Source: Mytilus edulis (lineage: Eukaryota). Taken from it: DNA of 64,000 nt. The position numbers and the translations under genes are program-made. Below are positions 1 to 29,170 of the stretch, piece after piece; the first letter of the stretch is position 1; every line of letters starts with the position of its first letter. The stretch lies in assembly GCF_963676685.1 (NCBI RefSeq), contig NC_092349.1, positions 76,508,001 through 76,572,000 on the forward strand. The letters are read 5' to 3'. The notes beneath the pieces were generated by a model. The model worked only from the letters and a program-made list of their open reading frames with translations. It searched no databases and had not been told where the DNA came from.

Positions 1-735
1 GAGGAAAGATTTACTGCTACGAAAGGTAGCTAAATTCAAACCAAGAACACTTCCAAGGATGCAGAGCAAAAATTATTTCAATCTGATAAAATTTGACTTA
101 AGTAAAAACAAATTTTATCTGATGCTGTATTTTTTTAATGGACATTGGCCAAATATGGTAAATCTAGGGATTGCAGTTATTATTTCAATCTGGAACTTAT
201 CAATTTTATTCTTTTTTATCCCTCTGGAATGCTAACACAATAACAAGAACAATTTTATTTGCATTACGGTGTTGATATAACGAAATCAGCTAATTAGCGG
301 TATCACCGTCCGCGCGGACACCGGGGACTCCACTGATGACCACATAAATTCTGTTTGTGTCATTGGCACATGTTTTCTTTTGTTGACAACGAACCATATG
401 TCACATGTGCACTTTTGGCGAGGAAAATACTAGGGGAAACACTTGCATGTATAACCGACAACACTGTCTGGTTATTTATACTTAAAATGCATAGCTGAAA
501 TAAGAGTGCCAGGAAAAGTGTTAAACTTAGTATTATACATAATTCCTTATTAACACACCATTTGAATGCAAATGTAAATAAGTTGGTACAATTTTACAAT
601 ATGGTATGAATTGACTGTGGTCATGGTGGTACAAGTAAGCAGTGGTATGAGTTTGCATTTATACGAGTTAGTTTTTAGTGACCAGTACAAGTCTGCAATG
701 GTACAATTAACTATAATTCGTTTCATATTTGTTTT

Positions 736-2194
736 CAGTGTTCCAGCTAGGATTTCAAAAGGGCAGGGTGTCAGTTCTGAAAAGGGCACATTTAACGCGT
801 GAAAGATCATTTGAAAAAGGCATGTTTTAATAAAGATGTAAACCAAACATTGTTTTATTCCTTTGATTATAGGTAACATATATATACTCAAAGGCAACAC
901 AGCAGCTGTGCTGAGTAGCTTAATCATGTTAGGGTAGAGTGTAGTTAACCCTAATTTACTGTTTAATAAAAACTTGATACAAGCCATGATTGTTCTATCT
1001 TGACTGCTTTTTTCCTCTATAAGTTCACAAAATGATGTCCATGTGTATTTAGCATTCTTTGCCAGTTTCAAATTGTTCAAGTTACAGGAACTGAGTTCAA
1101 TATTCAGATCAACAAGGCTAGAAAAAAGATCAAGTGATAAATTGTGCTCTACCAAATAGTAGATCACCTTCAACGCATCTTTAATAGCACTTCGTGAGTT
1201 TTGGTTAATTTTTTGATTGCATTTATCAGTATTTTCCTGTTCAGACTCACTATTATCAGAGGCCAAGTGCTCAGAGCAGTGTTCATGTTCTTTTATTTTA
1301 TCTAGGCGTATAGTTTTGCAACCAGTGTCACTCCATACACCAACTTTACTGTGCTTTTGACACAGTTGACAAATCATAACATCATCTATGTTTTTCAACC
1401 AGGGTCTACCGTATTGCCATTTTGAATCAAAAACAGTTTTATGTCCACTATTGTGCTTTCTTCTTTTATTGGGGCTTTCCGTATATTCAAAAGTTCTACT
1501 TTCTTCATTTTTTCTTTTTAAGTTTTCATCCAGTTTTTTGGGACTTTCATTTTCACTACTTCCATTACTATTTCTGAAAAAAATATCTTTTATAAAGTAT
1601 TTTTTCCCGTTATCGTCTTTTCCAAGAAGTAATTTAAAATTTAAAAAAAAAGATATCCAGTTATTTTTTTCAAGTATCGTCTTTACACAAGAGTTTTTAA
1701 AATAATTATATTTCAGTGGAATCAATTTCAATCAAATGGAAAAAGTTACTATTAGAAATTAAAAATATAACAAACTCACGTAGTGCTAAAAAAGTCGACT
1801 AAACTTCTGTTCGTCACTTTATTTTGTTTACTTTCCTCTTTCAATCGTCGTTCACGCTTAGGCATTGTGATTGTAAATAAGACAAGAAAAACAAACTCAG
1901 AATGTTATATAGTTTTTATTTAATGAGTTAAAATCACTGTTAATTAATAGATTCTAGTATTACATATCACACAGGTAAATCTATTTTTAACTTTTTAATG
2001 TTGACAAGGACGCATTAATCTGTAATGGCGGATCATACGACAAAACGAACAAAATCAAACATCGTCGATCTCAAAAAGGGCAGGGCGCAACGAAAAAGGC
2101 ACAGGGCGCTTAGAAATCTTTAAAAAGGGCACAGGGCGCAACTGAAAAAAGGGCGGGCGCCGCGCCCTCTGAAAACGACCTAGCTGGAACACTG
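736..2194 (-). mobile_element. Internally deleted hAT-superfamily DNA transposon (5-bp TSD, hAT5-like)
   Basis: Perfect 16-bp TIRs CAGTGTTCCAGCTAGG (736-751) / CCTAGCTGGAACACTG (2179-2194); GTTTT on both sides (731-735, 2195-2199); subterminal AAAAGGGCA(C/G)AGGG repeats; transposase remnant inside. Confidence 0.85.
887..1620 (-). pseudogene. hAT transposase remnant (ZNF862-like): zinc finger and N-terminal part fused to C-terminal dimerisation-domain fragment
   Basis: Part of ORF 550..1731. F..KW....PWL...MICQLC...GC...RLDKIKEHE.CSEH zinc finger and LAKNAKYT are followed almost directly by LYPNMIKLLSTAAVLPLS; the catalytic DDE core is absent. Boundaries approximate. Confidence 0.75.
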
Positions 2195-2821: not shown

Positions 2822-3272
2822 CTTGAGATTGAGTCAAAGGTAAACAACGCTTTCGTTGTTTTGCTTTTGGAGCGCGACCGGAAGTTAGTTTGAAACAAGC
2901 GCTTGAGGAGCGACCTCTTGTGGAATATGGACACTTTTGTCAAAAAGTAACAGCTTTTAAAAAAGCTTGCCGTTAAATCGCCAAGGTGCCTGATGCATCA
3001 TACTTTAAAAAAAACTTATTATTCTATTCTAAAAGGTTTCCAAATCAATGATTATATCATTTAATTTAAAGAAAGCATTTGAAATAAATTCGACAAATTC
3101 TCCGAATTCGTGTTTAATAGACCACTTGCACATTAAATGGCGTTTCGCTTTCAAATCTGCAAAATATATCGACCGGAAATAGGTGGGGCAAAAGACGTCA
3201 CAGTTTTTGCTTGTTTACCATAGCGATTGCCCAACACAACTTGTTTCATTCTGCTATAATACTACTATAACG

Positions 3273-6200
3273 ATGTTATCATTTAAATCTTTGACAATTC
3301 CAAAGATTCAGTTGTATTTGAGAGATAGAGGTATAGTGGCAAATGGTTACAAACAGAAAGATTTGGCCAGTTTAGCTGAGGCGGTGGAAAAATTGAACAT
3401 TCCGTATGACCCCAATTTTCTAGCAGACGACGTAGACTCTACCATACAAGATCGCCTGAGAAGAGCCGGTTGTAGTTTTTCTGACCCATTTACCATAGGA
3501 GGGTAATTTAGATAATTTTTCATTCATTTCTATGACTTTTACGCCCCTCTGCATACTTCTTTAAACCGGCTTTTTCACCTTTTCTTACTAGGGGGTCCCA
3601 ACGAGGGGCTATCAACGTAGAATATGTATGTCCTTAATACACTTGCCCTAAAATTAACCAAAATTCGTACCTTTACCTGACTAAGATTTTTTATTATATC
3701 CTTTATCGTTTGAATGAGTTATACTGACAAAATAAGTCAGAAAATAATATTTTCGGCTTTCTTTTAATTGAAGAGCCCCCAACCTATATAAAAATGTACC
3801 CAACTAACCCATATTCCTACCCTGACAGTATCCCTAAATATTAAACCTTACTTTAAACTAGAAAATCATATAATATGCTAACAATACAAACCATAAATGA
3901 ACCCTAAATCTTACTGTATTTTTTAAATTTGCCTAACCCATAAAGGCATGACCTGAAGTAAACACTGTATTCCCTAGAATCTAACCATTTGAACTTAGAT
4001 CCAATCCTTCTCACAATTTAAAAGTACCTGAAAATATGTTAAGTTACACAATACTTTCATATGTAGGGTCATACCCTAGTCCAAATAATAATGACATCTG
4101 GCAAAGCTATTTTAATTTTTTTTTTGGCAGTCCAAATTATTATGATGTCTGGTAAGGCTGTTCTAATTTTTTTTTTTGGACTGTCCAAGAAAAACATTTA
4201 AAAAGCGTTGCCAGAAGTCACAATTATTTGGACTAGGCCATACCCCAACCATATACAGCATAGTGCTCACCAGTCTTCTACTCCAATCTTAAAACCCTCA
4301 CTCTTACATTAATAGTACCCAACTGTACATATTGCATGTTAGTCCATTAACTTGAAAACCTACAGTTTTATCCCTAACCATAATCAAACCATAACCCTCA
4401 AGTAATGGGATTCCTAAAGTAAAAGGAGTCAAAATGAGGGTCATGCTTCTTTTTCTTTGTGTCTGAAGCAAATTACTAAAATATATTTTTCTATCTAGCA
4501 GTAAGGCAGCAACCATTTGATTTTCGGGGGGGGGGGGGGGGGGGGGGGGGGGGGCTATGGATTTTTTTGGAAAAAAAGTTTGTTTCCAGTGTATGGAGAA
4601 AAAAAAATTGTTTTTGACCCTGAGAAAAAAAATTGTGTGTTTCACCCTCAACTGCCACTTAATGTAATGCTAAAATTGAAAGAAAAAAATTGTTTTCGCC
4701 TTGTTGCCAAAAAAATAAATTGTCTTTGGCCGAAGATGAAAAAAAAAACCATAGCCCCCCCCCCCCCCCCCCTCCCAAAAATGAAATGGTTGCTGCCTAT
4801 TAATGAAATTATTTCTAAAACTCATATTATGGCACCTTTTTAAAAATATGATTATTCCTGTCAATCTGAAACAATACTATAAAGGGAGATCCCATTTGAC
4901 AAGACAATGGTGAAATTTAAAAAAAGGCATTCAAGACGGTATGGATAAAAATGATTTATAAATAAAAGAAAAGGGGGGGGGGGGGGTTGAGACATTTTGC
5001 CAAAAAACTCAACTCATGGAACAAAAATGTACGGATAAACAAATTTCACGGTCCACTGAACAAAGAAAATGAAAGTGGGAGTTTCAGGTTAAACTTAGTA
5101 CACATGTTCCCTATTTGGTATGATTTTCTAATTTTAATGGCAAATTTAGATTTTTTACCACATTTCATGGTCCATTGAACATGGAAAATGATAGTGCGAG
5201 TGGGGGCATCCGTGTACTTAGGACATATTCTTGTTTTACTAGAAAAATCCATTAATTTCTTACCAGCAATGCATTATGTAGTGTTGATTAATGTTAAACT
5301 TTTATTTTTTTCAGATATGATGAAGATTTTTCTGGTATACCTGACTTTTCCTTGTACGACATCTTCAATTATTTGTTGTTGCAACGTTCAGATTATGATA
5401 AGAGGAAGTTGAAAGCTTATAAGAGTGCAGAGGACTACCGCTTGTTTTATGATGGACATGTCCAGGAACTGAAAGTCAACTATCTTAAGGTTAACAGCTC
5501 AGTTTGTGTTTTTATTGGAAAGGTGAGACCAACACAGAGGGCAAAGACGTTGACTGGGAAGATGACCTACCAGTGCTGGTTTGTTGTAGACAAGACTCTA
5601 GGTGATGTTAAAGCAGCTTACTGTGAATGTCCAGGAGGGTAAATATAAAATTATTATATTTGTCAAATTCTTGACCCACTGTATTTTCTATTGTTATATG
5701 AAAATAAGAAGATGTGGTATGATTGCCATTGATAAAACTCTCCACAAGTGACAAATTGACAGCAAAATCATCATCTTACTATAGATACAATCTTCAACAT
5801 CTAGAAAAAAACTAAGGGAAGTCAGCTATAAATTTTTTGAAATGACAAATGTAAAACAATCCATAGAATACAGCTCATGGTCTGATTTATTTTAAAAAAA
5901 AATGAAGGAAAACCAAATATGAAATATTTCAACAAACAATGACCATTTTATTAAATATTCCTGACTTGGGACATGCACAGAAACCAAGTGGTGGGGTTAA
6001 ACTATTTTGTAAGAACATTTGTATAACAGCCTTAAGTATAGGTGGATTTAAAGTCATAATTCCACCTTATGTAATAATGCTGTCTTTTGATTGGACGAGA
6101 AACATGGTATTTTTTCACCAATTTCTATATATTGAGATTTTCTTTTCTCTGCCGGGGTTTTTGCAATTAGGGAATTCCATGTGCCGGGGTATTTGCTAGC

Positions 6201-9200
6201 AAATACAATGGCAGATGGGAAATACCCTAGCAAATACCATGGCAGATGGGGAATACCATGTCTAAAAATAACTCAATGAATTATTTCTATTCTAATATGA
6301 CAAATTCATGGTCATTCTAAATATGTGTTTCCAGATGAAATATTTAGGATAAAAAGCATCATTATTGAATTTGAAGCGAATGACGTCATAATTCAAACTC
6401 AACGGATACTAATTGGCAACCGGTCACATAAAACTTGAATCCAGTTGTATTACGCGTCACTGAAACTGATGAACAAAGTGTAGTAGTCAGCCGAGAAGCA
6501 GCTTATTAGCATACAAAGGCAGAGATATATACAGTCAGTGACTGTACATAAAAAAAAGAAATGATTATACGGTCAATCCAATTTGACTGTGCAATTAGCA
6601 CAGCTGCAGTGTATACAAAAATTAGACATTCAAGTCGAAATTTCATATGATACCTGATTATAATAAACTTTCTGAGGTAGAACATTCGGTGGAATTAAAC
6701 AATTATATCATGCTTACAAGGGGTATTTGCCAAAAATACCGGTTTCGAGGTAATCAAATTTCCCTCGCCTAACGGCTCTGGAAATTTGTACCTCTCAACC
6801 GGTATTTTTGGCAAATACCCCTTGTAAGCATGATATATTTGTATAAAACTCAAGGTTGGTTTTCAAGCTTCTGTGTCTTGTATTAGGCAGTTGGAATTTA
6901 AAAATTCTGCTGATGTAATTTGATGACTTTCAATAAAAAATGCCAATGTTTAGTTAACCTTAAAAAATCTATAATGATTATAATATATGTATGCATGTGC
7001 TAACTTTCTTTAATACAATTTAATTGCAGTGCTGATGGAGCTTGTCGTCATGTTGCAGCATGCTTATATGAGTTGGAGGCATTTGAGAAGAAGTCTGTTA
7101 CTGATGGTCCTTGCCAGTGGAAGAAACGAAAGAGGGAACACGATGAGCCAGTAGAAGTGGAACGAATGAAAATTATCAAACCAAGGTTTTTAACTTAATC
7201 ATGTTCATCTTTAGCACTGGTAAAATTCAAACATTAATAAAAAAATATTCTAGATTTCACTCATATATATTATATATATACAGTATTAGTATATGTATAT
7301 ACATGTATTTATAGAATAACTAACCAAAGAATTCAAATGGAGAAAAATATTCAACAAGTGACCGAACAACACATTAATTCATGAATGCGCACAACGAGTT
7401 GAATATTTTTTTATATTTGATGTCTTTAATTAGTTATTCTTTTCATTACATTGGCAAATGGCATTTTTTTACAGAAATTAATGCAAAACATGTTAGGAAC
7501 TATATTTTTTTCTACGCATTCACAATTTGTGTTCATCGCCTATTGTTGTATGACGTCAGAGAGTGAAATAATAACAACTGTTATTTCACATGTGAAATTT
7601 TTCGATTTTTTTTTTAACTGAGAAATCAATGTATTTCATTGCAACCAATGTAATAAATATATATGTTACACAAGGATCCAGACTGGCCTCTAATCTAAAA
7701 ATAACCATTTTAATTCATTTTTTTTTATTATATTTATTAGGAATAAGTTATTTTAATAACAATAATAATTAAGAACTTTGTTTTCATTTTTCTTCTCTGA
7801 AAATAGACTCCTCATTAAATATTCATCTTGTCGCTTCTGGAAGTTTCTTGTTGCTACTGAAAAACTTGGAAATCCTAAATACCGGGCACATACAATGCCA
7901 ATATTTAATGCCTGTCCAATAAATACATTTAAATGTTTAATATTCCAAATTAGGAGGATGGAAGCATGTGTATCATCAGCAGACCATGTGGTTTCCAGTT
8001 TTGATCCTAGACAGATGGTTGACAGAGCTACAGAAGACGAGAAGATAAAACAGTTTGCAAGTAAATTAGCACAGGTATAACAACAATTCTTATGCATTGA
8101 AATTTAATTATGAACTTGTTTTGCCTTAGAGTAGAGATAACTGTATTGTAATTGAAGCTTTGCGGCATCCATAGGTACTTTTACTGTCTCAAATACCCGT
8201 TTACCTGTCTCTGCTATGCATCGCCAGGTAAACTAAATTTGCTACAGTAAAACTACCGATGGACGTCCTGAAAGCTTCAAATAACAAAACAGTTATTTCT
8301 TAAATAATTTAACAACACGCCCACCGGTTTTATTGGTGGATACACTATACTTCAAGTACAGCGCCCTCTAGCGACTCCTCTTGAGGTTTGAAATCATATT
8401 GTACAGATATCTTTTTCCTATGTAATTTTAAAACCTCAAAATGAAGTCTTGAGCAGAACTCTGTGTCCATTGAAAATATATGTATCAAGGTGCTTACACT
8501 TGGTGCATAGTTATAACATACATCAACCATTCTTGAAAGTTTAAGGATTGATAAAATTGGACAGTAACAATTACATTTTCAAAAATATAAAAAGCAAAAA
8601 AAATATCAAAATAATTACTTTTGTGCAAGACCTTTTTTAAACAATAAACCATACTTTAATACTTAAATATTACTCCTATTATAATTTTTTTTTTGTTAAC
8701 AATGAAAGCTTAAATTTATTTATTATGGCATTAGTGTTCTTTCTTAAATGTTCAATGCAATATCAATTATTATTTTAAATTTTTGCACTTCAGTCTGCAG
8801 CATATATATTATATATATGCACCAAGTGTCACCTTTTTAATTTATGAATTTAAACAACATTAATTCTTATTTAAAAAAAAAATACTACAGAAAATGGTGA
8901 CAATTTACCTTGTGAAATTTATGCTTTGAATTTTGTTCAAGTATAATAATCATTAATAGGATTTTGCAATCATTTCATTAATTTCAAAACTAATATAAAT
9001 GTTTTTTAAGAAAGTTACTGAGTTCATATATAAAAAAAATAAGTTCTGCTCCTGGCTTTAACAAAACACCACAAAGCCAGTAAAGGTAAAAGTAAAAATT
9101 GTAAACAAAAACAAAAATATATCAACAAATACCAACCCTGAAAAAAAACCTTATTAAAACATTGTGTAATTTTTTCATACTTAATTTTCTTTTTCAAATT

Positions 9201-10291
9201 TTCACAATTTACTTTTAAGAAAATGCATCATATAGTGAACACAAATATTGAAGTCATTAAAATGCCAAATTCACATAATTAAAAAAATATACTTAATATC
9301 TTTTTCCATTGTCCATATATATACAGTTAATATTTTTCTTCAAATTCTTAAATTCAAAATTGATATTTTTTCTTGAAAAACATATAATTAATACTTTTGT
9401 TTATAATTCAACTTGGTTTTTGAATAGATAAATCCAGAGGCTAGAGCACTAGAATTTCTACCCCATGAACCAGTAGATGTGGCAAAGATGGACTATTCAG
9501 AGGCAATACAGGACTTAACAATTCCTACTAAGGCTAAGTATTTTAAAGATAAGTATGTATGTTTAATTGATAATGAAGAGGACATAGTTGATAAATTTAT
9601 GGCTAGCCTATCATTCAGTTCAGATGATGTTAAGCTGATATCAAGAGCAACTCAGGGCCAGAGTAGCAACAACTTATGGTTCACTATGAGGAAAGGTTTA
9701 ATTACTGCTTCTAACTTTCAGGCTATAATGAATAATGAGGACCCAGATCATATTTGCAGCCGAATTATAGGTAGTGAATCACTTTCTGTAAAGAATAAAT
9801 TCCAAGAATTGGCCTTAGACTGGGGTAGACGCAAGGAATCAAAAGCCAGGAACCTATACCAAACAGCTCATGGTTTGAAAAGGAATAAATGTATAACTGA
9901 AACTGGTTTGGTGGTAAATCCGAAGTATCCATGTATAGGTTGTAGTCCAGATGGAGTGATCACATGTAAATGCCATGAGAGTAAAGTTATTGAAATTAAG
10001 TGTCCGTTTTCACTAAGAAATAAATCTGCTAAATCTGTATTACACATGAAAACTAATTCTGATGGTTATATTGATTTTTCTTCACAGTATTATTGTCAAG
10101 TGCAAGGACAAATGGGAATTATGGAGATGAAAAAGTGTGATTTGGTATTCTACACCAAACATGGAATAGAACATGTAGAAGTCAATTTTGATGAAGAATT
10201 TTTTAACAGAATGCTGGTGAAACTGCAAAACTTCTTTACAGATTATATTGCACCATTTCTTCTAGAAATAGTGAGTAAAGAGAACTTATAA
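3273..10291 (+). CDS. ISL2EU accessory protein: SAP-like N-terminus, SWIM zinc finger, YqaJ/lambda-exonuclease domain (~564 aa, 5 exons)
   Basis: Exons 3273-3502, 5315-5638, 7030-7185, 7954-8074, 9428-10291; all GT..AG, phases compatible, 1695 nt with no stop. SWIM CECPGGADGACRH spans the exon 2/3 junction. YqaJ motifs TQGQS..LWF..RKGLITAS, WG...E, GL.V....P.IGCSPDG, IEIKCP, YYCQVQGQM. Confidence 0.88.
4077..4235. mobile_element. MITE with TAG termini and ~10-bp TSD (AcademH- or Mutator-like)
   Basis: TAGTCCAAATAAT...ATTATTTGGACTA; flanks GGTCATACCC (4067-4076) / GGCCATACCC (4236-4245). A related copy lies at 18061-18226. Confidence 0.65.
4505..4797. mobile_element. MITE with poly-G/poly-C subterminal tracts (Harbinger-like)
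   Basis: TIR GGCAGCAACCATTT / AAATGGTTGCTGCC; inner inverted GGGGCTATGG / CCATAGCCCC; flanks TAA / TAT. Confidence 0.75.
5021..5235 (-). repeat. Partial copy of the Helentron/HINE-like repeat family
   Basis: Reverse complement matches the start of the 54209-54843 element (CAAGAAT.TGTCC.AAGTACACGGATGCCCC.ACTCGCA.TATCATTTTCCATGTTCAATGGACC). Confidence 0.75.
6704..6837. repeat. Long hairpin (41-bp perfect outer arms), probable end of a non-autonomous element
   Basis: TATATCATGCTTACAAGGGGTATTTGCCAAAAATACCGGTT (6704-6744) and its exact reverse complement (6797-6837); imperfect inner stem and GC-rich loop. Confidence 0.9.
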
Positions 10292-10296
10292 AAATA

Positions 10297-10486
10297 AGAC
10301 CGTTAATTTCCCTTTTTGAATGGTTTTACACTAGTAATTTTGGGGCACTTTATAGCTTGTTGTTCGGTGTGAGCCAATGCTCTGTGTTGAAGGCCGTACC
10401 TTGACCTATAATGGTTTACTTTTATAACTTGTTATTTGGATGGAGAGTTGTCTCATTGGCCCGCATACCAAATCTTCCTATATCTA
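10297..10486 (+). repeat. Dispersed ~190-bp repeat (second copy at 29742-29933)
   Basis: AGACCGTT...GAATGGTTTTACAC...TTCGGTGTGAGCCAA...GTTGAAGGCCGTACCTTG.CCTATAATGGTTTAC...GTCTCATTGGC...CATACCA.A..TTCCTATATCTA at both loci; related 3' ends near 5705, 36880, 51230, 61030. Confidence 0.85.
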
Positions 10487-11080
10487 ATAAAAATAAATTT
10501 ACTAAAAATTGGTCCATGGGTACTTTAAATATTTTACTAAATATTAATTTGATATCTATAAAATTTTTCAATCCAAAATACTATGCAACTCAAAATAATG
10601 GTTCTTGGTACTTAAACGATTAATTTAAAGCAAAAGATTAATTTTTCTTCTGGGTGGTGGGTTTACTTAGGTACATTGTAGATGCATGTATTATAATATT
10701 AATATATTTTTTAACAATTTTCAATAGATTTCTTCAAAATTATTAAAAGCACTGACCAGTTCTCACACTATGTATAATTTCGACCTAGCCTACTTAAGAG
10801 TAATTCCTGCGTCAAGTACAGTCTAGTATGTTAACTTTTCAATGGTTATTGTTTCATGCATATTCCGGAGAAAGCATTTGCTTGTCCTGGCTTTGTCATC
10901 AACATCAACATTTTCAAACGATATAAAACAAACAAATAGAACTAGACAAATTTTCACTCACCAAAGGTTTTTTATTAAAACCTATTAAAGTTGATAATCT
11001 ACAATATTTTTAAGACCTTGTAAAAGATTGTAATTTTTTATACACCCATGTCTACAGATGATACTGCATGTCTATATGAA

Positions 11081-11569
11081 GGGCATATGATACAGTTACA
11101 GGGGAGGTAACTTAGTAACGTACAATGTTATTTATGGGACACTTAAAACTGTGACATATTGGGAAAAGATGCATTTCAACTGGTTTTTTTTATGATTTAG
11201 AGTTATTTAACTTGGAAATGAGTAGAAGGGCCCCCCCCCCCCCCCCCCCCACCCTTTTTTACAATGGCATATTAATTCAGTTTGATTAGGTTTGAAGAGT
11301 AAATTCTATTAATTTAAATGAAAAGTCCACATTCATTTTTTTAGAATTCATAAATATAGTGTAAAGTACACTGAATTATTTTTTCCAAAGAACTGTTTAA
11401 CAAAAAGCCCATATTGTTTATCTGTTTTTTAGAGATTTCCCCCCCCCCCTTCTGCAGCACATTAAGGTATATTTTTATCTGACATATTTAAATTGCTTAG
11501 GTGAAAACTAGTTTGTATCCAAATTTTCATAAAACATTTATCATGGAATCATAACTGTATCATATGCCC
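11081..11569. mobile_element. Kolobok-like MITE (RR termini, TTAA target)
   Basis: TIR GGGCATATGATACAGTTA / TAACTGTATCATATGCCC; flanks TGAA / TTAA; related to 39166-39796. Confidence 0.75.
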
Positions 11570-13052
11570 TTAAAATAAGTTGTATTACTGTTGTTGTCGT
11601 TGTTGTTAGTTTGATGCCTCATTGAGGGTTAACATGTGTCCCTTTTCATTCATGCTTATTTAATTATGCTTGTTGTGCTGATGCCTAATTTAGGTTTACC
11701 CTGTTACATCCTTTAATTTACTGTCAATCTTGTTTGGCTGATGCCTTTATATAAATAGCCAAATATGTACCAAATTTACTTTTTGAATTAATTATAAATT
11801 TTGTAAATCCAAGTAGATAAGTAAATTATAATGAATCAGATATACCCATTTGACCCACTTAAATTAATATTGTTTAACCCTTTTGCTGACAAATGAAGGT
11901 TTAATAGTAGATATGAATTTTAAAAGTTTTTGAAAATTCAGCACAATTTTAATGATGCCTATTATTCTATAAAACTGGATGTTTACTTTATTGTTTCCAT
12001 TGGTTGCTTTCGCTCAAATTTGTGTTGTGTCGGGATCTGATAATTATTTTCCTAAATCTTGTTTCTGGTAAATCAATATAACTACACAGTGCCATACATG
12101 TATAGTTGGTTATATTTACTTCATTACAATTTGTATCCACAACTGACTCATTGACAAATATAACACATCTCATTAACTTAAGATGGAATACTTTGTAGTT
12201 ATTTAAAAAAAATTGGTTCTCTATAGATGATTTAAGGTAGTTCAGGGGTAAACTGCCATCTTGAATTGTACAATCACAGTAAATAATCAATTATTTGGTG
12301 TTTCTTTTTGCCCAAATCTGAAAAATTGGAGAAAGATTTGCAATTTATTCTTTACACTGTATTTTTTAATTTAAGGAAACTTAGTTACCGGTATGCACTT
12401 CATTATCAAAACTATTTTAACAAATACAAAATATTGGTGCTTTTAGGAACAAATTATTTAAATGAGCCATTTAAGGGGAGATAACTCTTTTAGTAGATTA
12501 TTTGTACTGGACATATAGAGAACTTTCATTTTTTTACACCCCCCCCCCCCCCCCCCCCCCCGCCCCCTTTCCCTTAAAATTATGACTGGACGTATTATTT
12601 TATACAAATGTCAGACGTCCGTCTGTCCATGTTGAAAAGAGCAAAGTTAAATCTTTATTTTCTATACCTCTGAACTACCTTAAAGTGTTTATTTGTACTG
12701 ATATCACTTTCCACTAGTAGTCTTATCCCAAAGAGGTTAACTGGAGATTAAAGCAGGAATGCTTACCATTTAAGAGCACCTTTCTCAGTGTTAATATAAG
12801 GATGTATTCTTAATAATGCTATTGTTTTTCAGGATAGGTAAATATTTAAAATAAATGTTCTTGTTCTTTATTTATTTAATTTTGTTTTAAACAAAGTGTT
12901 GTCTGTCCCTTCTGAACATGCAAATTGATTTGTCCAATGTGTCTTCAACAGAAATAGTGATAATCTAATAAGAAATGTTTTATTTAAGTGAGATCTGTTT
13001 TTGGCCATGAAATACCTAAATTTGATTCAAAGATGGCAAAAATGAAGAGATC

Positions 13053-16000
13053 TTACTTCACAAGTTTAGACCGCAAGTTACACAAAGCACCACATACAAA
13101 AATAATATCATCAAGGATGGGTTTAAGAGTAAGAGGCAATGTGCCCTGTAGTAGCTGAAATGATTTGATATCACCTATAGCTCGTTCTACATGGATGCGT
13201 GCATTTGCAATACGCCTAGTCCTTGTAACTGCTCTACTGCTCAACTGTCTGCCATTTGCAAAAGGTGGAATTGCAAGAGTTGCACCCTTTAAAGCCAGGA
13301 GATCACTTATGGTGAATCCACGGTCAGCCATAACCTCATCGCCAAACTCCAACATTTCCAAGAACCCAGATGCTTGTGTAATCCTGCGGTCTGAAACTGC
13401 CCCTGACCACAACTTTGACAAGAAACAGAATGAACCACTTGGTGTTATACCTACCAAAAGTTTGAATGTATTATTATGCTTATAACTTGACCAAGTGATT
13501 CTCTGGGCAGAAGGTAATGAGGGTTTTTGAACAAAAAATTCAGTGCAATCTATAACTACTCTGGTTTTAGGGAAATACTTAAAACATTTAGGCATATTTT
13601 CCTTTATTTGATCTTTAGTGGGCCACTTGATAAGAAAATCCAGTTCTTTCCGTAAAAACACAATCCATGTGGAAAAGATACGGGAAACAGTTGAAGAACT
13701 TATACACAACATATCTCCCAAGACATCTGTGTCCAATCCCTTCCTCAGTCGTACAAGGCTCATCAAGTACTCCTCCCAAAGTGATAACTCCCTCAATGCT
13801 CCCCTTTTCTGTAAAACAAAATCCAAGAAAAGACTACTATTGAGATTTGTCAATTTTGTTGATTTTTTTATTGTTTATTACTTATTTTTTCTGATTTTCA
13901 TCATTTTTCTGGCTTATGAGATTTACCGTGTTAAAGCCAGGAGCAAAATATCTATTAAACATATCAAGTAAAGCATTCTGAATAATACTCTTTAAAGCCT
14001 AACTGACATTTTCAAAATTACATGTACTATTTTCTGGAACAATTACCCACAAACTTAAATTAATCATGACATATGAGAAGAACTTTTGTTTGTTTCCATA
14101 GAAATTTCTGTACAAAAGATGAATTTATTTTAATAATAGTAGGGTATGTTTACACGAGTTCTGCTCATGACTTGGCATAAAGATACACATGACATTTTTT
14201 AAAAACAAATTGTAGTGTTCAGTAAACCCTGACAACTGTTACTTTTCATCCTTGGTAAAATAAAAATAAAAAGTAATAATGAATATAATATTTGGTTGAT
14301 TTGATCACAATTGCATATTACCATCTAATCAGTAATAACAAAAATAAGTTTTTACAAAATCATTATGCCAAGTCGCTAGGGGGCGCTGTTCCAACAGTGT
14401 ATCCACTAATAAAACCAGTGGACGTTGTAAACAATGCTTGATATAAAGACTTTGATGCTAACAAGAAATATTTATTGTTACATTTTTCATGTTTTTACAG
14501 GTATCAATGGAGACCTTGTAGCAGGACATAAATTAATGAAGAGACACGTTTTTGAGAAATGACCATGTGTTGATTTTTAATATAAAGTATTAACACTGGC
14601 TATTGCTTGAATAAGTGCTCAAAATCCATCAAAAAGAACAGATCTGTCTGAGGAAATCTTACTATTTATGTTGAGTATTTGAATAAAATATAGGTAAGGT
14701 TTTAACTAAAGTGAATTATGAGACAGATAACTTACCTTTCCACTGACATCATTCTCTGTATCGTCGAAGCTGTCATCAACCCTAGATGACCCATACCAAT
14801 ACTTCATCCTAGAAGCCTTCAACTCGACATGACTAAAAACAAGTTTCAAGACATCCAGTGTCATTCCTGAAAATTTAACAATGAGGCTGTTAAAACTGAT
14901 AATGTGTTATTTTATCGATCTTAATTTTGCATCTACTTTCAATTACCGGTGAGTTAATCCTTTTTTTTTTTAAATCACTAAAACATATCCCAAAAATCTG
15001 CATACATTGAATAGACCAATATGTTATGATTAAAAATAATATTCCATGCTTTCATTCCAATCTTATTCTTATGATAAGGTCAGGGGGACCTTTTAAATAC
15101 CTGTATAGGCTTTAGGCTTCTTTTCCACATCTGAAACAAATAACTGTCTTCTCATGGTCTTCAAGTTGACATTGGTACTGCTGTCAGAATAAGTTGGATG
15201 GTAAGTCTGAGATCCTGAATCTGCAATTTAAGTTCAAATATAAATGCATGTATAACACTTTTTTCTCTATGCAACCCTACATGTATATTTGAATTTTGAA
15301 AGACTTTTATTTGGGGTTTTCTTCACTTTCTTGTCCAAAACCAAATGAAGCAAGAAAATCAAGTCATAGTCAAATAAACGCTGCCAATATTGAGACAATA
15401 ATCATGATAATTATTGGTTAAAAAAACATTTTTCCAAATTTTTACGCCCCCCGCTGTAGCATATAGTGGCATTAAGTTTTACACTTTTCTGTTGGTTTCC
15501 TTTCTGTTAACTTGAGTTTTATTCAACAAAACATTATGAAACTTATACAAATGCTATTTACCATGTTTATCACTGAACAAGGAATAAGTTGAATTTTGAT
15601 GGTTACTTAAAAACTATTGCAGAGTTTAATTTTGCCCCTTTACTAATGAAAAATTACATTATGCAAATAGATCAAAGTAAAAAATCTGAAAATAACAATT
15701 GAAAGTGATTGTTATTTCACTAATTCAGTGAAAAACTAAACAATCTCAAAAGTAAACGTTTTGTTTCGAAGTACATTTTTGTAAATTGTGGCTAGACAAA
15801 TTCACTGCAATAAGGAACATTCTAATATACATGTAAGACACTTTAATATATTAAGATTATGATATCCAGATATAAAACAGTGCTGTACTACTTCATTGAT
15901 TGCCAAGGTTAACAGGGGCAGAATTAGAGGATTTTTCAGCCCCCCACCTTTTGATGAAAAAATTTGGTTGATTAAATATATACGGAATCACTGAAGCATG

Positions 16001-19000
16001 TATGAAGCGGCTACTTTTTACGAAAATTTCTGGATCTGTCATTGCTTGATGTATAAACTTCACACCTTCCCGCATAACCTCCAGCCCATTTAGAAATATA
16101 GAGCTCCCATGTCATCATAAATATATATAAATTTACCTTTTGTTTCCACAGGTAGAGGAGTAGCAGTAAAGATAGTGGTGTCAATGTCATCTGGTACTTT
16201 CCCTTCGTCGCTAGGCCTTAGTTCAATCTCTGCTTCAAAATCTAAAATTATTTAATGAAATATGTTATATCTATTATAAATCAACAGAATTATCTGCCCT
16301 TTATATTTTAACTGGTTTTATATTTTGAAATACAAACTTAATGCTTTTTTATACTTTAATGTAAAAATTTGAAGTTTTAGATTATTTTGTTATATACTGC
16401 AAGTTATTTTATGTACTTGGGAAAATAATTTCTATTCATAGCAAAAAACAAAAAAATCTGCAACGTGCCCAACACAGATGCTCAGAAAGAATATCCATTT
16501 AATTATAATTATCAGCCAGATAAATATTCTATAGAGAACGTGTCAAGAAAAAGAAAAAATACAACATTTCATGCATTCGTTTATCTGGATCTCACCTACC
16601 TAAATACTAAAAATATTTACAGATTTTTACCATTCTGATATAATTTAATTTTGGATGTAAAGCGTCCACTGATTGGCTGACGTCCTTTTGTTTATCAGCC
16701 CATAGACATAATTTTGTCATGTGGCTGTGATGTCATCAATGTTTTTTCATGGTTTAATCCCGTTTAAAATGAAATTTCAAATTAAATTATAAGAAATAAT
16801 TGAAATTTTTTTTCTAACTATTCAAAATAAAATAAAAAATGTGGTGCACACTGTAAAATGGCCCGTTGTGAGAAAAAATACTACAGTTACTCCTTAATTG
16901 TTCAAAAATAGTCACATTTTAAACTAAATTTTACAAGGTTGAGCCTAAACGGTGGGTAAAATATGACACTGACCTTTAATTTATCATGTTTATTTTTTAC
17001 ATTGTGTAATGTCAACTTATGCACTTACTTCATGATGTTGTATAAGATTTGCGAAATTGTACATTTTTATGATCATTTTATTAAAAAAAATGTGATTTGG
17101 AAAATTTTAAATGCATACATGTATTTACATGTAAGCAATATAAAAAATAAAATCAAAATAATTGAAATTATGACACATTTGTTGTTGTCATGGTTGTTGT
17201 TTAAGATAAAATAAAATAATGAACATATTTCAACAAATTAAATGATTTAAAAAGGAAACTAATGTGCAGACAATTTTAATGTGTTTTCGGACATTGATAA
17301 TATATTAATTGTAGCCTTTGCTATGTTTGAAGGAGGTCAATAATTTACATTTTAAGATGTATTGACTGAGGATAACAATTTTCTAAAGATACAGTAACAT
17401 GTTTTAAAAGATCTTACCTGGAACATGAACTATACAGTAAGAATGATCTAGGTCTACTGTTCCCTGATCAGCTGATTTTCCTAAAATAATGAAATGCTTT
17501 ATTATATGAAACATTACACATTTATACAAAAAATTACAGTTTATCAATTTGATAGACATTGTTTTAACTTCACCCAATACATGTAACTACATGTAATATC
17601 TGACATGAAAATAGGGAAATGTTGTGGATTTAAATATGTTCACAACAGTCTTTACTCTTAGCCACTTGTCTGAAGACGCAGACCAGTATAAATAATTAAT
17701 CAGACTAGTTAGTTGTTGTTTATTTAGAAACATATGTAAAATGTGGGAATATTGGTCTTTGGACTAGATCAGTAGGATTTTGATGCAGACTGCACCACAT
17801 GCATAAGATATTAATAACACAATACTGTACATGTAAATGTACATGTCATGCATATATTTTCTGTTTGTGAATACTATATTTGGACAGACTGGTAGCCGTA
17901 GGTACTGTACATATAAATGTATCTCAATGTCAGTTTTATTTGTGTATGTCTTTGAGCACGTTGAACTGCCTTTAGCATTAGTAACACCAAATTTTGTGAT
18001 TAAGCATTGTGACATTACAGTGGTCATTTTTTAAGTCTGCAGCTACATGTACACAAATGTTAGTCCAAATAATTATGACGTCTCGAAAGGCTTTTATATT
18101 TTTTTGACGCAATAATTATGAGGTCTTGAAATGCTATTATATTTTTTTCTTTGAGTAAGGTGTCAAAGAACAAAAAAAATAGCCTTTCTAGACAGCCTTT
18201 TGAAGACATCATAATTATTTGGCCTACACAAATTATGCTATTTCAGTCAGGCCTAAATTAAATATTGTTTGTTTCCCCAATCCCGACCCTGCAAAGCCAG
18301 GTGTGGGTAGGTACATTTGTAGGTTGGAAAAAAAATTTATTTTTCCATAAGCTTGAACAATATTGGACGGATCCGGCAAGCCTGAAAATTTGAAATTAAT
18401 AGAATAATATTTGACTTAGTTTTGACAATAAAATTTTATGAGCTGCACCAATTTTGCAGGGTTTGTCAGGATTTGGGAAACAAACAATATTTAATTTTAG
18501 GCCTCAATATTCATTGGCATAACAGCCTTGTACTTACAAATTGATGTTTTTATAAGTTTGTAGTTTGAACAGTTCAATGTATGAAATATGAAACTGTTTT
18601 TGGATAGCTCCTACATAATTTCACACAATATTTTTTAGTATCATGAGTTCATAAACATGTATAAATGCAGCACCTGCATGTTCAAGTAAAAAGTGCCATT
18701 GGGATATATGTCAATCATGTCAAATTTTAAACAAAGTAATATTTAAACATAATGAACCTTTATATCGAAAATACAAGCATTGTATTACATTATATATACA
18801 TTTCGTACCAGGTTTTTTCACCTTCCTACACACAAGGCTTGGACGGTCTATTGGTGCCCTTCTTTTCCGGTTCTGCAGCATGAAATTTTCCTTCTCAGCT
18901 TCACAGGCGCCTGCAGGAATAGGATCGGGATATTCCTCAGTCGGACCGTTCCCCCTTACAAAGTGCAGTGAGCAGATGTAGCTATATTTCGTCACTTTTT

Positions 19001-19166
19001 CAACGTTCAGGTCAGGTCGTCCGCAGGCTCTTATCCATCTTTCACACTTCACTCTATTCCGTAATGGCTTTGGGAACGGAATAAAGTGCACATCCTTCTC
19101 CGCGAGTCTCTCTGGGTACCTACTGTCACTCTTACAAACCCCGTACATGCAATTTTTGTTCACCAT
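13053..19166 (-). CDS. THAP-domain Harbinger/ISL2EU DDE transposase (~510 aa, 6 exons)
   Basis: Exons 19166-18809, 17480-17418, 16241-16137, 15220-15101, 14866-14736, 13808-13053; GT..AG, 1533 nt open. THAP (C-x4-C...FP...W...C...ICSLHF...P), DHSY motif, YTG, HTH (LVRLRKGL....LG....IS.STVSRIF..W), catalytic IDCTE / MADRGF / RIHVER. Confidence 0.9.
18061..18226. mobile_element. MITE, same family as 4077-4235
   Basis: TAGTCCAAATAATTATGACGTCT / AGACATCATAATTATTTGGCCTA; flanks CACAAATGT / CACAAATTA. Confidence 0.6.
18250..18503. mobile_element. Harbinger-like MITE, 3-bp TCA TSD
   Basis: TIR GGCCTAAATTAAATATTGTTTGTTTCCC / GGGAAACAAACAATATTTAATTTTAGGCC; TCA at 18247-18249 and 18504-18506. Confidence 0.8.
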
Positions 19167-19314
19167 AGTCAATCGGAAATGTGTTTGTTTACCCTGGTTA
19201 CAATGGCGGATTTGGAAATTCTGCCCGCCTTTTGGTACAGTCAATATAGATTTCGAAATTCCGAAGTTACATACTTCCGGTATGACTAATCACCAAACAA
19301 TGTGCAAGTGGTCT

Positions 19315-22300
19315 ATTAAAATTGAAAAAAGTTAATATAGGGCTTTAATTGATTCCGGGGCAAGTTGCTCTTTATTACATAAAAGAGTTTATCAAGCTAT
19401 GAAAAGTCTACCTTAGTTAATTAAAAGTAAAGTATCTCTTCAAGCGGTAAACAGTGTTCTTATTAGTAGAAGGTAGCGATTTGTAAATTGGGTGATCAAA
19501 AATAAATCATGTTTTTCATGTAGTGTCGGATATGAATAGAAATATAATTCTGGAAAGAGATTTTCTACAACAACAAGGCGTGCGTGTCTATTTTGACTTA
19601 AACTGTATAAGAATTGGAAAAGTTTACGTGCCTCTTCAAAATGACATCCATATTGCCTCAATAGTAAGAGTTGCTAAGAGGACACTTTTAAAACCTCAAA
19701 GTGTAAAAAAGATCAAGAAACATTCATGTTTTCTAAACTCTGAATTGTTACAAGTATCTGCCGTGGATTCGGGCTATATAAATTCGGAAGCAGGATTATT
19801 AGTAAGTAACTCAGTTACTTAAATACATAATATTCCTGTTTTAATGTTAAACAACACCAATAAAACTATTTGTTTAAATAGGGGATGTGTAGTAGGAAAA
19901 GTCAGTGACATCAATACAAATGACGTTTCATGTGTAACAAAAGATGGTCAAACAATTGAGTCAATCGATACATCAAATCAGAAAATTGATGTTCCTCAAG
20001 ATTATCTAGAAGTTGTAAGATCTCTTGTAAATGCAAATGAGGACATATTCGCTAATAGTGACAAAGATTTAGGGGGGAATGACACTGTTAAAATGTTTAT
20101 TGATACGGGATATCATCACCCTATTAAATTAAAACCGTATAGAACTCCTATACATAAAAGGCCAATAGTTGATAAAGCAATTGATGAAATGCCGGAAGCA
20201 AATATTATAAGAAGGTCAAGATCACCATGGTCATTTCCGATTGTCGTTGTTGATGAAAAGGATGGATCTAAACGATTTTGTATTGATTTCCGTTTATTGA
20301 ACCGTATAACGAAAGTTATCCCTTATCCTTTACCATTTCAATGATAGACGATATTTTGGCACAATTAAATAAAGCAAGGTATTGTACAAGTTTGGACTTA
20401 AAGAGTGGGTACTGGCAAATAAACATGACAGAAAGTGACAAAGAAAAGACTGCATTCACTACTTGTCACAGGGGTCTTTTTGAATTTAATGCTATGCCTT
20501 TTGGACTTGTAAACGCGCCTAGTATTTTTAGCCAGCTCATATCTATTGCAATGCAAGGATTATACCAATTTTCGGTTGCCTATTTTCTGAAACATTTGAA
20601 AACCATTTACGTCACATTCAGACAGTGTTTGATAGGTTGAGACAACATAATCTGAAATTAAAAGTAAAGAAATGTAGTTTTATTAAAGAAGAAACTAAAT
20701 ATTTGGGTTTTGTTATAACGCGTGAAGGTGTTAGACCAGATCAAGATAAAGTAAAAGCTATTCAGACAATTCCGATACCCAAAACTGTGAAAGAAGTTAG
20801 AGGATTTATTGGTATGTGTAGTTACTACAGAAGATTCATTCCGAATTTTTATAAAAAAGCGGAACCTCGTGTCAATTTTACGAGAAAATATTCGAAATAT
20901 CATTGGTCAGAGGGTTTTGACGTAGGCTTTAATTACTTAAAAGATATTTTAACAGTGAAACCTCTAATTGCATATCCAAACCCTCTAATTTGCCTTATGT
21001 CTTGTACACTGATACAAGTGATACATGTGTTAACTAGTGCATGCTTGACACAGATATTACCAATGTCATTTCAACTGATCGGGCGGAGCTTACGTTTTAA
21101 TTTGCATAAGGACAGTCTATTTGAAGATGTGTGTGATTAGGATGATTGCAGTTATAATTATTACTGATTTCTAATCACCTATCAGTGCCATCAAAGGAAT
21201 TTACAAAAGAAAAACTGGACACTTCATTGATGAGTTTATCCTAAAACACCTATCTATAGATGGAATGGTTTATTATGAGCGAAACGGTAAACTCCACCCA
21301 GTCAAGTGAAATAAATTGAGTAATAACTGAAGAAGAAAATGCAGTTGAAAAACCTATTTAATTTCTATAGCATAAATTAAGCTAGACTCAAACTCTGGGG
21401 TTAACTGTTGAAAAAGAAGCGTTTACGATTCATTATGCACTCCAGAAATTAGATTTTTATTTCCACGGAGCAAATTTTATCATCAAAACGGATCATAAAC
21501 CTTTGAAATATTTACTAGATTCTCCAATGAAAAACAGAGAGCTACAAATGTGGTCTTTAGGGATATATATATCTGGATATAATTGTAAGATTGAGTACAT
21601 AGCAGGAGAAACAAACTATTTTGCAGATCTTTTGTCAAGAACTCCGCAAAGTGATGACGATAAGGGAATAAGTAATGAAACTGTCGATCCCGATATAAAT
21701 GATAACACCTATGAAATTAATACAATTAATTCAAATAAATTAAACACAAGAAATTTTGCTACTTGCACTGTAGAACAACCGGATTTACCTAGTAAGGAGA
21801 CTTATCAAAATGAAGATTTAAATATGAAATTAGAACAAGCAAAAGATTTGAACATTGTTAAGGTTAAAAGGAAAATTGAAACAGGTACAGCGGGAAGCTC
21901 TACACAAAGTCAATTCGTGATTATTGAAGATGTTGTTTATTTTCTGTCACAGCCTCATATTGATCCTCTAATCCGATTATATGTTTCAGAACATTTAAGG
22001 GAAGATATTGTCGTTCAATATCATGATAATAATGGTCATTTAGGTATTGATAAAACATATGACAGTATAAAGCTACGGTATTACTGGCCAGGGTTATACA
22101 AGAAGATATATGCTTATGTCACCATGTGTGTTACATGTCAAACTAGAAATTTAAGAAAAGTAAATCCTCCTGTTCAAGAAGTAGATACATCACCTTATCC
22201 GTTTGCTAAAATAGCATTAGATTTATCAGGAAAATATCCAGAAACATTGTCTGGGAATAAATATATCATTGGCTTCATTGCTCTTTATTTAATTCGGGAT

Positions 22301-23419
22301 TCCCTGAAGCTTTTGCAGTAAAAGATAAAAAAAAAAAAAAAAAGCCGAAACAATTGCTCATTTGCTTATCGAGGAAATAATTCCAAGACATTCAGTCCCA
22401 TTACAAATTTTAATGATAACAGATCTGAAAATGTGAATAAAATTATGAAGAAAACATGCGAAACTCTGAATATAAATCATATTACTACTTCGTTTTACCA
22501 TCTGCAAAGTAACGGACGAATTGAAAGGTTCCATCGTACTCTCCATGATGTTTTATCTAAACTAATGAAAGACAACACATCAATGTGGGATTTGTTTTTA
22601 AATCAAGCTTTGACCGCTATTAGGTTAAACATAAGTGAGTCTTCTAAATTTTCACCGTTCTATTTGTTATACACTCGAGATGCCGTTCTTCCCATTGATA
22701 ACATAATGAAACCTAGCTCATAGGAAATATATTGTCGAAGACTTGCATCAAATAATGCCAAATCAACAACATAAATCATTCGTGCTGGTACATAGGTCCA
22801 TAAAACAAGTTCAAATGCGCCAGTTAAAATATAAATAAAAACTGTTTAGATGAAGGTTTTAAGATAGGGGATCCTGTTTATTGTAAAAATCACTTGAAGA
22901 AAAATAAATTAGATAATCGATGGACACCGTATTTCCGTATTGTTGACCAAACCTCGGCAGTGTCATTCGTGATCCAGGTCAATTGACTGGAGGTACGAAA
23001 AGCACATCTGCGAATAGCTAAAATCGATGAGTGGGTATTCCTTAAATAAGGATAAACAATTAAGAAAAGCTGCGTATGTTGCATCTCCTGATGTCAGTAG
23101 TTCAGACATGGAGGTTGACACTGACTCGGATTCTGATTTTAATAAAAAAAAAACTCTTGCTACTCTTGCAAAGAAATATCGAAAAAACGAACAAATAGTT
23201 CTGATGAAGAATCAATTCTTCTTATAGAGTAAACCCTTAAAAGAAAAAGAAAGAGAGGAAAATTATGACAGTGATTCAGAGGAATCAATGTCTGTAAAGG
23301 AGATTATCGAGACAAATCTGAAAACGAGAAAAGTTAGGCAAACATTGCCGTCACATATAGGTAAAGATAAAAATGTTAAAGTAAAAAAATTGTTGGCGTC
23401 AATTTCTAACATGTTGTAA
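19315..23419 (+). pseudogene. Decayed Gypsy/Ty3 pol (protease, RT, RNase H, integrase)
   Basis: ALIDSGAS protease (~19340); SRSPWSFPIVVV.KDGSKRFCIDFR, LDLKSGYWQI, MPFGLVNAP (RT); VRGFIGMCSYYRRFI; TDHKPLKYL (RNase H); H-x4-H...CVTCQ and SNGRIERFHRTL (integrase). Many stops and frameshifts. The protease N-terminus lies at ~3069-3118, on the far side of the ISL2EU element. Confidence 0.93.
21058..21322. mobile_element. 265-bp MITE inserted in Gypsy RNase H
   Basis: Imperfect ~40-bp TIRs (TACCAATGTCATTTCAACTGATCGGGCGGAGCTTAC / GTAAACTCCACCCAGTCAAGTGAAATAAATTGAGTA); flanks ATAT / ATAA; removal restores CLTQ-ITEEENAVEKPI. Confidence 0.75.
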
Positions 23420-24160
23420 GGCTTCACAATAAGTTGATATTGATTGCACGGGATTGTAAATTGTACACAAATAAATGACTTGTTTATTGCTTTTAAAGAA
23501 TTGTATGTTGATTTAAAAAAATTCACTAGAGCTGTTAAAGAAAGAATTTTTCAAATTGAGAGACATGTTAGGATAAATTCGATAACTGAAGGACCATCAC
23601 GTCTTGTAACGCAGGATCAATTTTGTTTTTCTTACCTACAAATGCAGCTGAATATACTGTCGTTAGGTCATTTGCCATCAAGCGTGATGTCTCCGAGAAA
23701 AAAAAAATAACAAAACTGTTAATTGGGATTAATATAAAATTGCCACCAGGCATAATGCCACCGAGTGATCCAATTACTAAATTATGGGATTACTATCAAA
23801 TCTTAAGCTTTCACACCGTGTTGGATTATTATCGTATAATCGTTGTTTTGTCGGTACCATTGATAGATTATAACAGTAATTTTGATATTTTAAAACCATT
23901 TAATTTACTTATTCCGATAAACTTAAATCCGCAAGTGGGCAGTACAAAGTCCATGCTAGCGTTCTATAATCTTGAAGCCAAGGCGTTAGGTGTAAATGCT
24001 AAATATATTCTTCTAAATTATGATGAACTAAATAAATGTATTCATTCGATAAGAAATTTTTGTGACACAAGAAGTCCAGTCTATCGAATAAATCTAAGTA
24101 AATTTTGTAAAGTTGCTCTTTTTTTACCTTGTAAACATCAAAGGAATGCTAATCCAATTC

Positions 24161-24243
24161 CATCATCAGGTGGGGTCCTCCTTCCTTGGCTGTTTCGGCG
24201 CTATTCCACAACAACCTCCAGAGGTGCGCCGGCTCAGGTGATC
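24161..24243 (-). ncRNA. Candidate rearranged (non-circularly permuted) hammerhead ribozyme, copy 1
   Basis: Minus strand: GGCGC..CCUCU..GGUUGU-U-GUGG..GCGCC-GAAA-CAGCC..GGAGG..CCAC-CUGAUGA. Stem III GGUUGU/ACAGCC, stem I GUGG/CCAC, stem II GGCGC/GCGCC. Confidence 0.55.
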
Positions 24244-24375
24244 AATCTGAACCTGGAACTGGATGGCCTACACGGCTCCGATGTCTCAGCTGATGTCATT
24301 GCTGTTCTTCTGTAACTGAATGCTGTTCTGTATATCTAAATCTGTCCATTATCTACACAATAAATGTTCATTGTT

Positions 24376-27907: not shown

Positions 27908-28018
27908 GCCCCGGTTACCAGTCTCTCCTGGCTGCCTCCTGTCTCTCCAGGTTGCCACTGTTCTCTTCACAGTCGTCAACCAGACTTTCCTGGTGGTCAC
28001 TGGGTTTCCAGAAGTTGA

Positions 28019-29122: not shown

Positions 29123-29170
29123 TAAGAATGATGTAAAATTGATTGAAAATAATTGTCATACCACCATTAA

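Follow-up and report, generated by a model that had tools for sequence, protein, structure and literature searches.

ISL2EU transposons belong to the PHIS superfamily (PMC4122938, PMC4482050), and published members, such as ISL2EU-1 to -4_CGig of the oyster, have short terminal inverted repeats (TIRs) and duplicate AT on insertion. They live in animals and pair a THAP-HTH-DDE transposase (HTH, helix-turn-helix) of about 450-550 aa with a second open reading frame (ORF) of about 500-650 aa that bears a YqaJ domain. As stated in PMC4482050, their target is A|AT|T with duplication of AT and the TIRs usually begin with GG, a tendency rather than a requirement; the paper also acknowledges that what the YqaJ gene does has yet to be established. 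All 25 ISL2EU families in Table S2 of that paper are 746-7,117 bp long, with the oyster families at 4.8-5.4 kb. Here we describe an element from a 64,000-nucleotide stretch of the Mytilus edulis genome (assembly GCF_963676685.1, contig NC_092349.1, positions 76,508,001 to 76,572,000 of the forward strand), referred to as the window, whose first letter is position 1. The element is a complete copy, occupies 3119-19314 (16,196 bp) and almost certainly belongs to ISL2EU, as an initial annotation made from the letters of the window had proposed; the AT duplication, the TIRs, a THAP-HTH-DDE transposase and a YqaJ second ORF (ORF2) bear this out. It is a new, unusually large, transcribed copy of this known group. 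The animal host and both protein architectures are shared with published ISL2EU elements, but the length of 16.2 kb, nine introns that together make up 9.9 kb and hold host repeats, TIRs starting with AG in place of the usual GG, and annotated isoforms in which each gene reads through into the opposite strand of the other are not. A literature search for ISL2EU in Mytilus returned only work on Kolobok, and listings on transposons that combine SWIM with YqaJ or lambda exonuclease contained nothing on ISL2EU, judged by titles and the opening of abstracts; Repbase, which was not searched, may already catalogue the family.

The left TIR, AGACCACTTGCACATT, matches the reverse complement of the right end at 16/16 positions and has no third occurrence in the window. 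The perfect TIRs first reported from the sequence are thus confirmed. Across the 1.37 Gb of the genome the same 16-mer is found 12 times, against 0 for a control pattern. At 16 bp, the repeat lies within the 6-259 bp given for ISL2EU TIRs, and other ISL2EU families of the same genome start with AG, GG or AC. The flanks read TTTAAT|element|ATTAAA. Separate searches with the left and right flanks converged on one locus, C5:76291290, at which the flanks adjoin and overlap by 2 bp, and also showed both flanks contiguous at C11:52039398. Both of these empty paralogous sites carry a single AT, and therefore the AT target-site duplication that had been proposed is real and lies inside A|AT|T. AAT stands directly outside the repeat in 11 of the 16 distinct family ends listed, identical ends being counted once. 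The insertion splits the protease region of a decayed Gypsy-type long terminal repeat retroelement whose paralogues are empty. The regions concerned are about 2900-3118, 19315-22720, 23590-24315 and 30670-31401 of the window; the retroelement has reverse transcriptase, RNase H and integrase zinc-finger matches, all in broken frames, and a Pfam search of two downstream open frames gave no match.

The element carries two convergent genes, and all nine introns are GT-AG (Table 1). ORF2, on the forward strand, has five exons and four introns and encodes 564 aa without stops, and the transposase gene, on the reverse strand, has six exons and five introns and gives an open frame of 510 aa. Coding DNA amounts to 3,228 bp and introns to 9,905 bp, and 2,761 bp separate the two stops. 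For transposase intron 1, two alternative donors lead to a stop or a frameshift, so that one of the three tried stays open. Eight of the nine predicted junctions are present among the 15 of 33 contig joints listed: all five of the transposase are spliced in contigs of runs X15, X3 and X14 (three studies), and ORF2 introns 2-4 in contigs of X3 and X14 (two studies). For ORF2 intron 1 these 15 joints contain no entry; exon 2 is preceded by 267 further letters in the X14 contig, and the intron 1 junction is spanned by the public protein model P0125 with identical residues. Run X6 has no spliced joints and was left out of the RNA evidence. Public models, all of them from Mytilus, agree with our exon models for the transposase (P0147, 510/510) and for ORF2 (P0125, 563/564), which upholds the two spliced ORFs of the initial annotation. 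Its statement that the system is invisible without splicing was too strong, as the last exons alone match YqaJ (expectation value, E, 6e-24) and DDE_Tnp_4 (E 2e-45) in Pfam and both proteins are present in public annotation as uncharacterised.

Table 1. Features of the ISL2EU element, in window coordinates
Feature	Position	Strand	Evidence
Left AT target-site duplication (target A|AT|T)	3117..3118	.	sequence and empty paralogous sites
Left 16-bp TIR	3119..3134	+	sequence and genome 16-mer search
ORF2 exon 1, SAP-like helix pair	3273..3502	+	helix pair inferred from relatives and structure model
ORF2 exon 2, beta-sheet and start of SWIM motif (C180, C182)	5315..5638	+	
Nested 789-bp high-copy repeat with long terminal hairpin, in ORF2 intron 2	6056..6844	.	
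ORF2 exon 3, rest of SWIM motif (C190, H192) and a basic stretch, KKRKRE	7030..7185	+	
ORF2 exon 4; acceptor (before 8027) of 265-aa transposase isoform lies on antisense strand	7954..8074	+	
ORF2 exon 5, lambda-exonuclease/YqaJ domain (E414, D452, E466, K468; R365)	9428..10291	+	
Transposase exon 6, HTH_Tnp_4 and DDE_Tnp_4 (D346, D421, E467)	13053..13808	-	
Transposase exon 5; donor also serves 265-aa isoform	14736..14866	-	
Transposase exon 4	15101..15220	-	
Transposase exon 3; acceptor (before 16152) of 561-aa ORF2 isoform lies on antisense strand	16137..16241	-	
Transposase exon 2	17418..17480	-	
Transposase exon 1, THAP zinc finger	18809..19166	-	
Right 16-bp TIR	19299..19314	-	sequence and genome 16-mer search
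Right AT target-site duplication	19315..19316	.	sequence and empty paralogous sites

The transposase has three Pfam domains above cut-offs, THAP (6-72), HTH_Tnp_4 (266-315) and DDE_Tnp_4 (345-503). D346, K369, D399, P440 and E467 are invariant across 119 aligned relatives. PMC4122938 gives the PHIS catalytic motif as D(19-29)K(29)D(18-40)D(11-19)P(18-28)R(3)E, and D346-K369-D399-D421-P440-R463-E467 fits it with spacings of 22, 29, 21, 18, 22 and 3. The structure model, built on P0147, has a compact core and a predicted local distance difference test (pLDDT) score of 84.5.

In the whole ORF2 protein, Pfam finds YqaJ (PF09588, E 2e-23) and Viral_alk_exo (E 2e-13). Lambda exonuclease is both the best PDB sequence match (E 6e-8) and the best fold match (E 2e-9; model on P0125, pLDDT 88.6). 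The nucleases of Kaposi's sarcoma-associated herpesvirus (KSHV SOX) and Epstein-Barr virus (EBV) also appear among the fold matches, and lambda and LHK exonucleases outrank the herpesvirus enzymes by sequence and by fold. Residues of about 356-536 share the fold and active-site residues of lambda exonuclease and LHK-Exo (PDB 3sm4, 3syy), to which ORF2, unlike lambda exonuclease, adds about 340 N-terminal residues (SAP-like, SWIM), and the element has no annealase partner. In the alignment, R365, E414, D452, E466 and K468 stand opposite conserved lambda positions, which we take to be R28, E85, D119, E129 and K131. Arg-28 of lambda exonuclease contacts the 5' phosphate and K131A is inactive, according to PMC11611040. 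Together with the spacing of the transposase motif, these residues confirm that the catalytic motifs are intact, as had been claimed. Among 156 aligned relatives, counting those with a residue in the column, E414 is kept in 133/134, D452 in 134/134, E466 and K468 each in 131/133 and R365 in 125/134. A SWIM-type motif, CxC-x7-CxH, is kept in 113-117 of 116-118 relatives, and Pfam SWIM gave no match for ORF2 itself. The model has two N-terminal helices, and the matching region is recognised as SAP (E<=0.01) in 10 of 28 chosen relatives; for ORF2 itself Pfam SAP gave no match. A C-terminal PHD finger, often ING-like, is present in 36 of the 115 relatives (within P0168-P0316) with a complete nuclease end. 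The element has none, nor have seven scanned regions of other families, and our literature search found no description of a PHD finger for ISL2EU.

The element is more than twice the length of the longest of the 25 published families. The genome holds three other ISL2EU families of 6.4, 7.1-7.3 and 12.6-13.4 kb (at C12:19.13M, C2:46.18M, C11:23.18M, C10:59.14M, C2:38.02M and C9:4.01M), all with convergent genes and AAT flanks. "Unusually large", the original description, thus stands against published families, and within this genome the element is at the top of a range. The 6.4-kb copies are a pair with 99.0% identity. In the C10 copy ORF2 is a single open frame of 599 aa, and intron number therefore varies between families. 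In 3/3 of the other families for which the region studied covered both genes, the pair is again convergent, and the transposases of these families are 41-60% identical to that of the element.

No other full-length copy was found in this genome, by searches that give lower bounds; ORF2 exon 5 had one strong match, and the other family loci are one-ended, internal or deleted. The ends are nevertheless shared with other loci. A transposase-side end at C1:34177242 is 99.1% identical over 2.7 kb with a different flank, a two-ended 1,134-bp derivative has AAT flanks, older family ends are 80-98% identical, and one internal relative is 82-95% identical. Compared with this decayed internal relative, the element differs by 5-10% in its introns and by 1-5% in its exons, and the ratio of non-synonymous to synonymous substitution (dN/dS) is about 0.2, a rough count of 23 synonymous and 17 non-synonymous changes over 469 codons that includes a stop and an indel. 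In public annotation, 510-aa transposases are encoded at six loci in M. californianus, each of the two genes is present at several loci in M. galloprovincialis, and the two proteins bear consecutive accessions in the M. galloprovincialis, M. edulis and M. coruscus annotations; the public protein clusters have 27, 16 and 15 members, with 15 listed per cluster. Near-identical ends elsewhere and genes at several loci in other Mytilus indicate that the element is mobile and not domesticated. Judged by sequence comparison the family appears to have moved recently, in line with the initial annotation. Neither of the results named there as contrary to it was obtained. That the element is autonomous is inferred from its anatomy and transcription.

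The window copy itself is slightly derived. The nested 789-bp repeat is skipped (joint 6055-6845) in contigs of 4/4 runs, which otherwise differ little from the element, and has 36 near-full-length matches at 84-100% identity among 40 scored of 1058 candidates, itself included. Residues S305 and T263 are private to this copy. Therefore it is not the youngest, and its introns are still gaining repeats. ORF2 exon 5 was found in 20 of the 24 runs listed. The M. californianus transposases P0006, P0154, P0157, P0158, P0162 and P0163 are 95.5-96.9% identical to that of the window, and the M. californianus ORF2 (P0134) shows 84% identity over 520 aligned residues; the nuclease protein may diverge faster than the transposase, or the M. 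californianus models may represent different subfamilies. An X10 contig has 28 unaligned letters before TTAAT and the left TIR, below the 31-letter standard, and cover is low beyond the right end in X10 and X12, both of them hints only of an insertion polymorphism.

Three other groups were considered and rejected. PIF/Harbinger has a related DDE_Tnp_4 transposase and a two-gene layout, but its 3-bp TWA duplication and Myb/SANT partner contrast with AT and a nuclease partner here; the domain search of the element's proteins gave no Myb/SANT match. Spy, a sister clade by transposase, also has an AT-rich target, but it inserts at AAA|TTT without duplication and mostly has one ORF and no THAP. KolobokE (PMC9587614) is a eukaryotic DDE transposon with a lambda-exonuclease-like PD-(D/E)xK nuclease, but it has a TTAA duplication, a transposase of another superfamily and a downstream nuclease, as opposed to AT, DDE_Tnp_4 and a separate convergent gene.

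We consider it probable that this is a complete, spliced two-gene ISL2EU element whose transposase works by cut and paste at A|AT|T and whose SWIM-YqaJ protein is a 5'-to-3' exonuclease acting on breaks. From knowledge of the family, the transposase would bind the 16-bp ends, excise the element and paste it into A|AT|T with a 2-nt stagger. ORF2 would be drawn to the break through its SAP-like/SWIM half and would remove 5'-phosphorylated strands. Action on such strands is likely because the catalytic and phosphate-pocket residues are near-invariant and lambda exonuclease needs these ends. In Tn7, as described in PMC9308760, a separate nuclease, TnsA, cuts the 5' ends, and the DDE protein TnsB cuts the 3' ends and transfers the strands. 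By analogy, we tentatively suggest that ORF2 may trim either the non-transferred strand or flanking DNA that is still attached, much as TnsA does but with a nuclease of another fold subfamily. TnsA is an endonuclease, whereas ORF2 resembles a processive exonuclease, and the likeness is functional only. It is slightly more doubtful that ORF2 resects the break left at the donor site and thereby allows homologous repair to restore the element there, and some other role is entertained as tentatively as trimming.

Several points weigh against this two-protein cut-and-paste reading. As of 2022 no proof of ISL2EU activity had been reported, according to PMC9179366. Spy elements are mostly single-ORF (PMC4122938) and their transposases are reported to be active in cells; a nuclease partner is therefore not needed across the clade. 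TnsA is not among the ORF2 fold matches listed, and because relatives were chosen for their likeness to the query, motif conservation is inflated. For the transposase, no fold match reached E<=0.001; the best was the ISCth4 transposase (E 2.5e-3), and the top of the list, all below threshold, consists of DDE enzymes. Only one full copy was found in this genome, and it carries private changes. Finally, only X15 is on record as RNA, X3 and X14 being taken as such by guess.

According to PMC9179366, the second protein of Harbinger associates with both the transposase and the TIRs and makes import into the nucleus possible, and ORF2 could similarly be a Myb/SANT-like DNA- or chromatin-binding escort of the transposase with a secondary nuclease. 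The SWIM and SAP-like parts, the basic stretches and the PHD finger of some relatives would suit such an escort. We nevertheless find it unlikely: there is hardly any variation in the residues of the active site and the 5'-phosphate pocket, THAP and HTH domains are already supplied by the transposase, and a PHD finger is lacking from the ORF2 of the window. It is less likely still that ORF2 acts outside transposition, either as a counter-silencing or host-modulating nuclease (for example on RNA, like herpesvirus alkaline nucleases) or as a passenger. The Viral_alk_exo match and the herpesvirus enzymes among the fold matches are consistent with this, as is the lack of a listed YqaJ ORF in some published families (PMC4482050 Table S2). 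The higher rank of the phage-type enzymes argues against it, and so do the retention of the convergent pair across such divergent families and, from PMC9587614, the recurrence of accessory nucleases in unrelated Kolobok transposons. The gene pair might also be a domesticated, immobile host duo with leftover ends, being a single full copy in the assembly that is transcribed, spliced, under purifying selection and near-identical in many runs. Perfect TIRs with a duplication, the interruption of a retroelement with empty paralogues, loci on different contigs in other Mytilus annotations and the 99.1% identical end elsewhere make this highly improbable.

Public annotation also includes two read-through isoforms, which come from near-identical copies and map exactly onto the window. 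A 265-aa transposase isoform (P0150 in M. galloprovincialis; P0142 and P0153, three loci, in M. californianus) joins 14736 to 8027 on the reverse strand, from transposase exon 5 to the antisense strand of ORF2 exon 4. It lacks the HTH and the DDE exon and is THAP-only. A 561-aa ORF2 isoform (P0137) joins 10270 to 16152 on the forward strand, from a donor inside ORF2 exon 5 to the antisense of transposase exon 3. Neither junction is among the 15 of 33 contig joints listed. Should the isoforms be genuine, at least 8 kb would be common to both transcription units. In the Drosophila P element, alternative splicing yields a THAP-bearing repressor without a complete catalytic domain. By analogy the 265-aa protein is possibly a repressor, but unlike the P element product it leaves out all of the catalytic exon, and its end lies within the partner gene, on the antisense strand. 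The splices could also be noise, as purine-rich exons give pyrimidine tracts on the opposite strand. We regard it as speculative and rather doubtful that the element encodes a heteromeric eukaryotic transposase that would need ORF2 catalysis for the 5' strands and would regulate itself by reciprocal read-through splicing, through a THAP-only repressor and sense-antisense RNA.

At four M. galloprovincialis loci on three contigs (P0001, P0131, P0135, P0136) the internal ORF2 donor is joined to exons of a gene that we presume to be VMP1-like; a weak Pfam VTT match below cut-off occurs in two of the four proteins. VMP1-like loci in this genome lie at C6:60.3M, C8:77.2M and C14:68.7M, and the latter two share about 30 kb at 97-99%. 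Capture of the gene by the ISL2EU family is unsupported here, as 40 kb around each of the three loci gave no tblastn match to either protein.

Elsewhere in the window, 24376-29155 (reverse strand) holds a non-LTR retrotransposon, presumably of a HERO/NeSL-like clade, with reverse transcriptase, zinc knuckle and restriction-like endonuclease motifs that are divided between two frames around 26730; after it comes a tandem, partial copy of the 3' part of the retrotransposon (24124-24423 equals 28019-28318). A 393-aa open frame at 550-1731 (reverse strand) has a zf-C17orf113 domain and is, we assume, probably a remnant of a hAT-related transposase. At 36000-43700 (reverse strand), short exon-like units recur in groups (families D7, D10 and D11), each unit with a splice-donor-like motif at its end; they are probably a host gene with duplicated exons. 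A 33-bp tandem repeat, present 42 times and open in several frames, lies at 47578-48960, and a Ser/Thr/Asn-rich, mucin-like open frame with a 24-bp repeat at 56961-57620 (reverse strand).

The value of this copy is limited in that compact intact ISL2EU families are already published and usable for the same two-protein test. Taken together, however, natural full-length transcripts for both proteins, precisely defined ends, a target site that is proven and signs that the family moved recently in mussels make that test directly feasible. The element also shows that an ISL2EU copy can reach 16 kb with 80% non-coding DNA, and that elements of this kind are present in public annotation as uncharacterised gene pairs.

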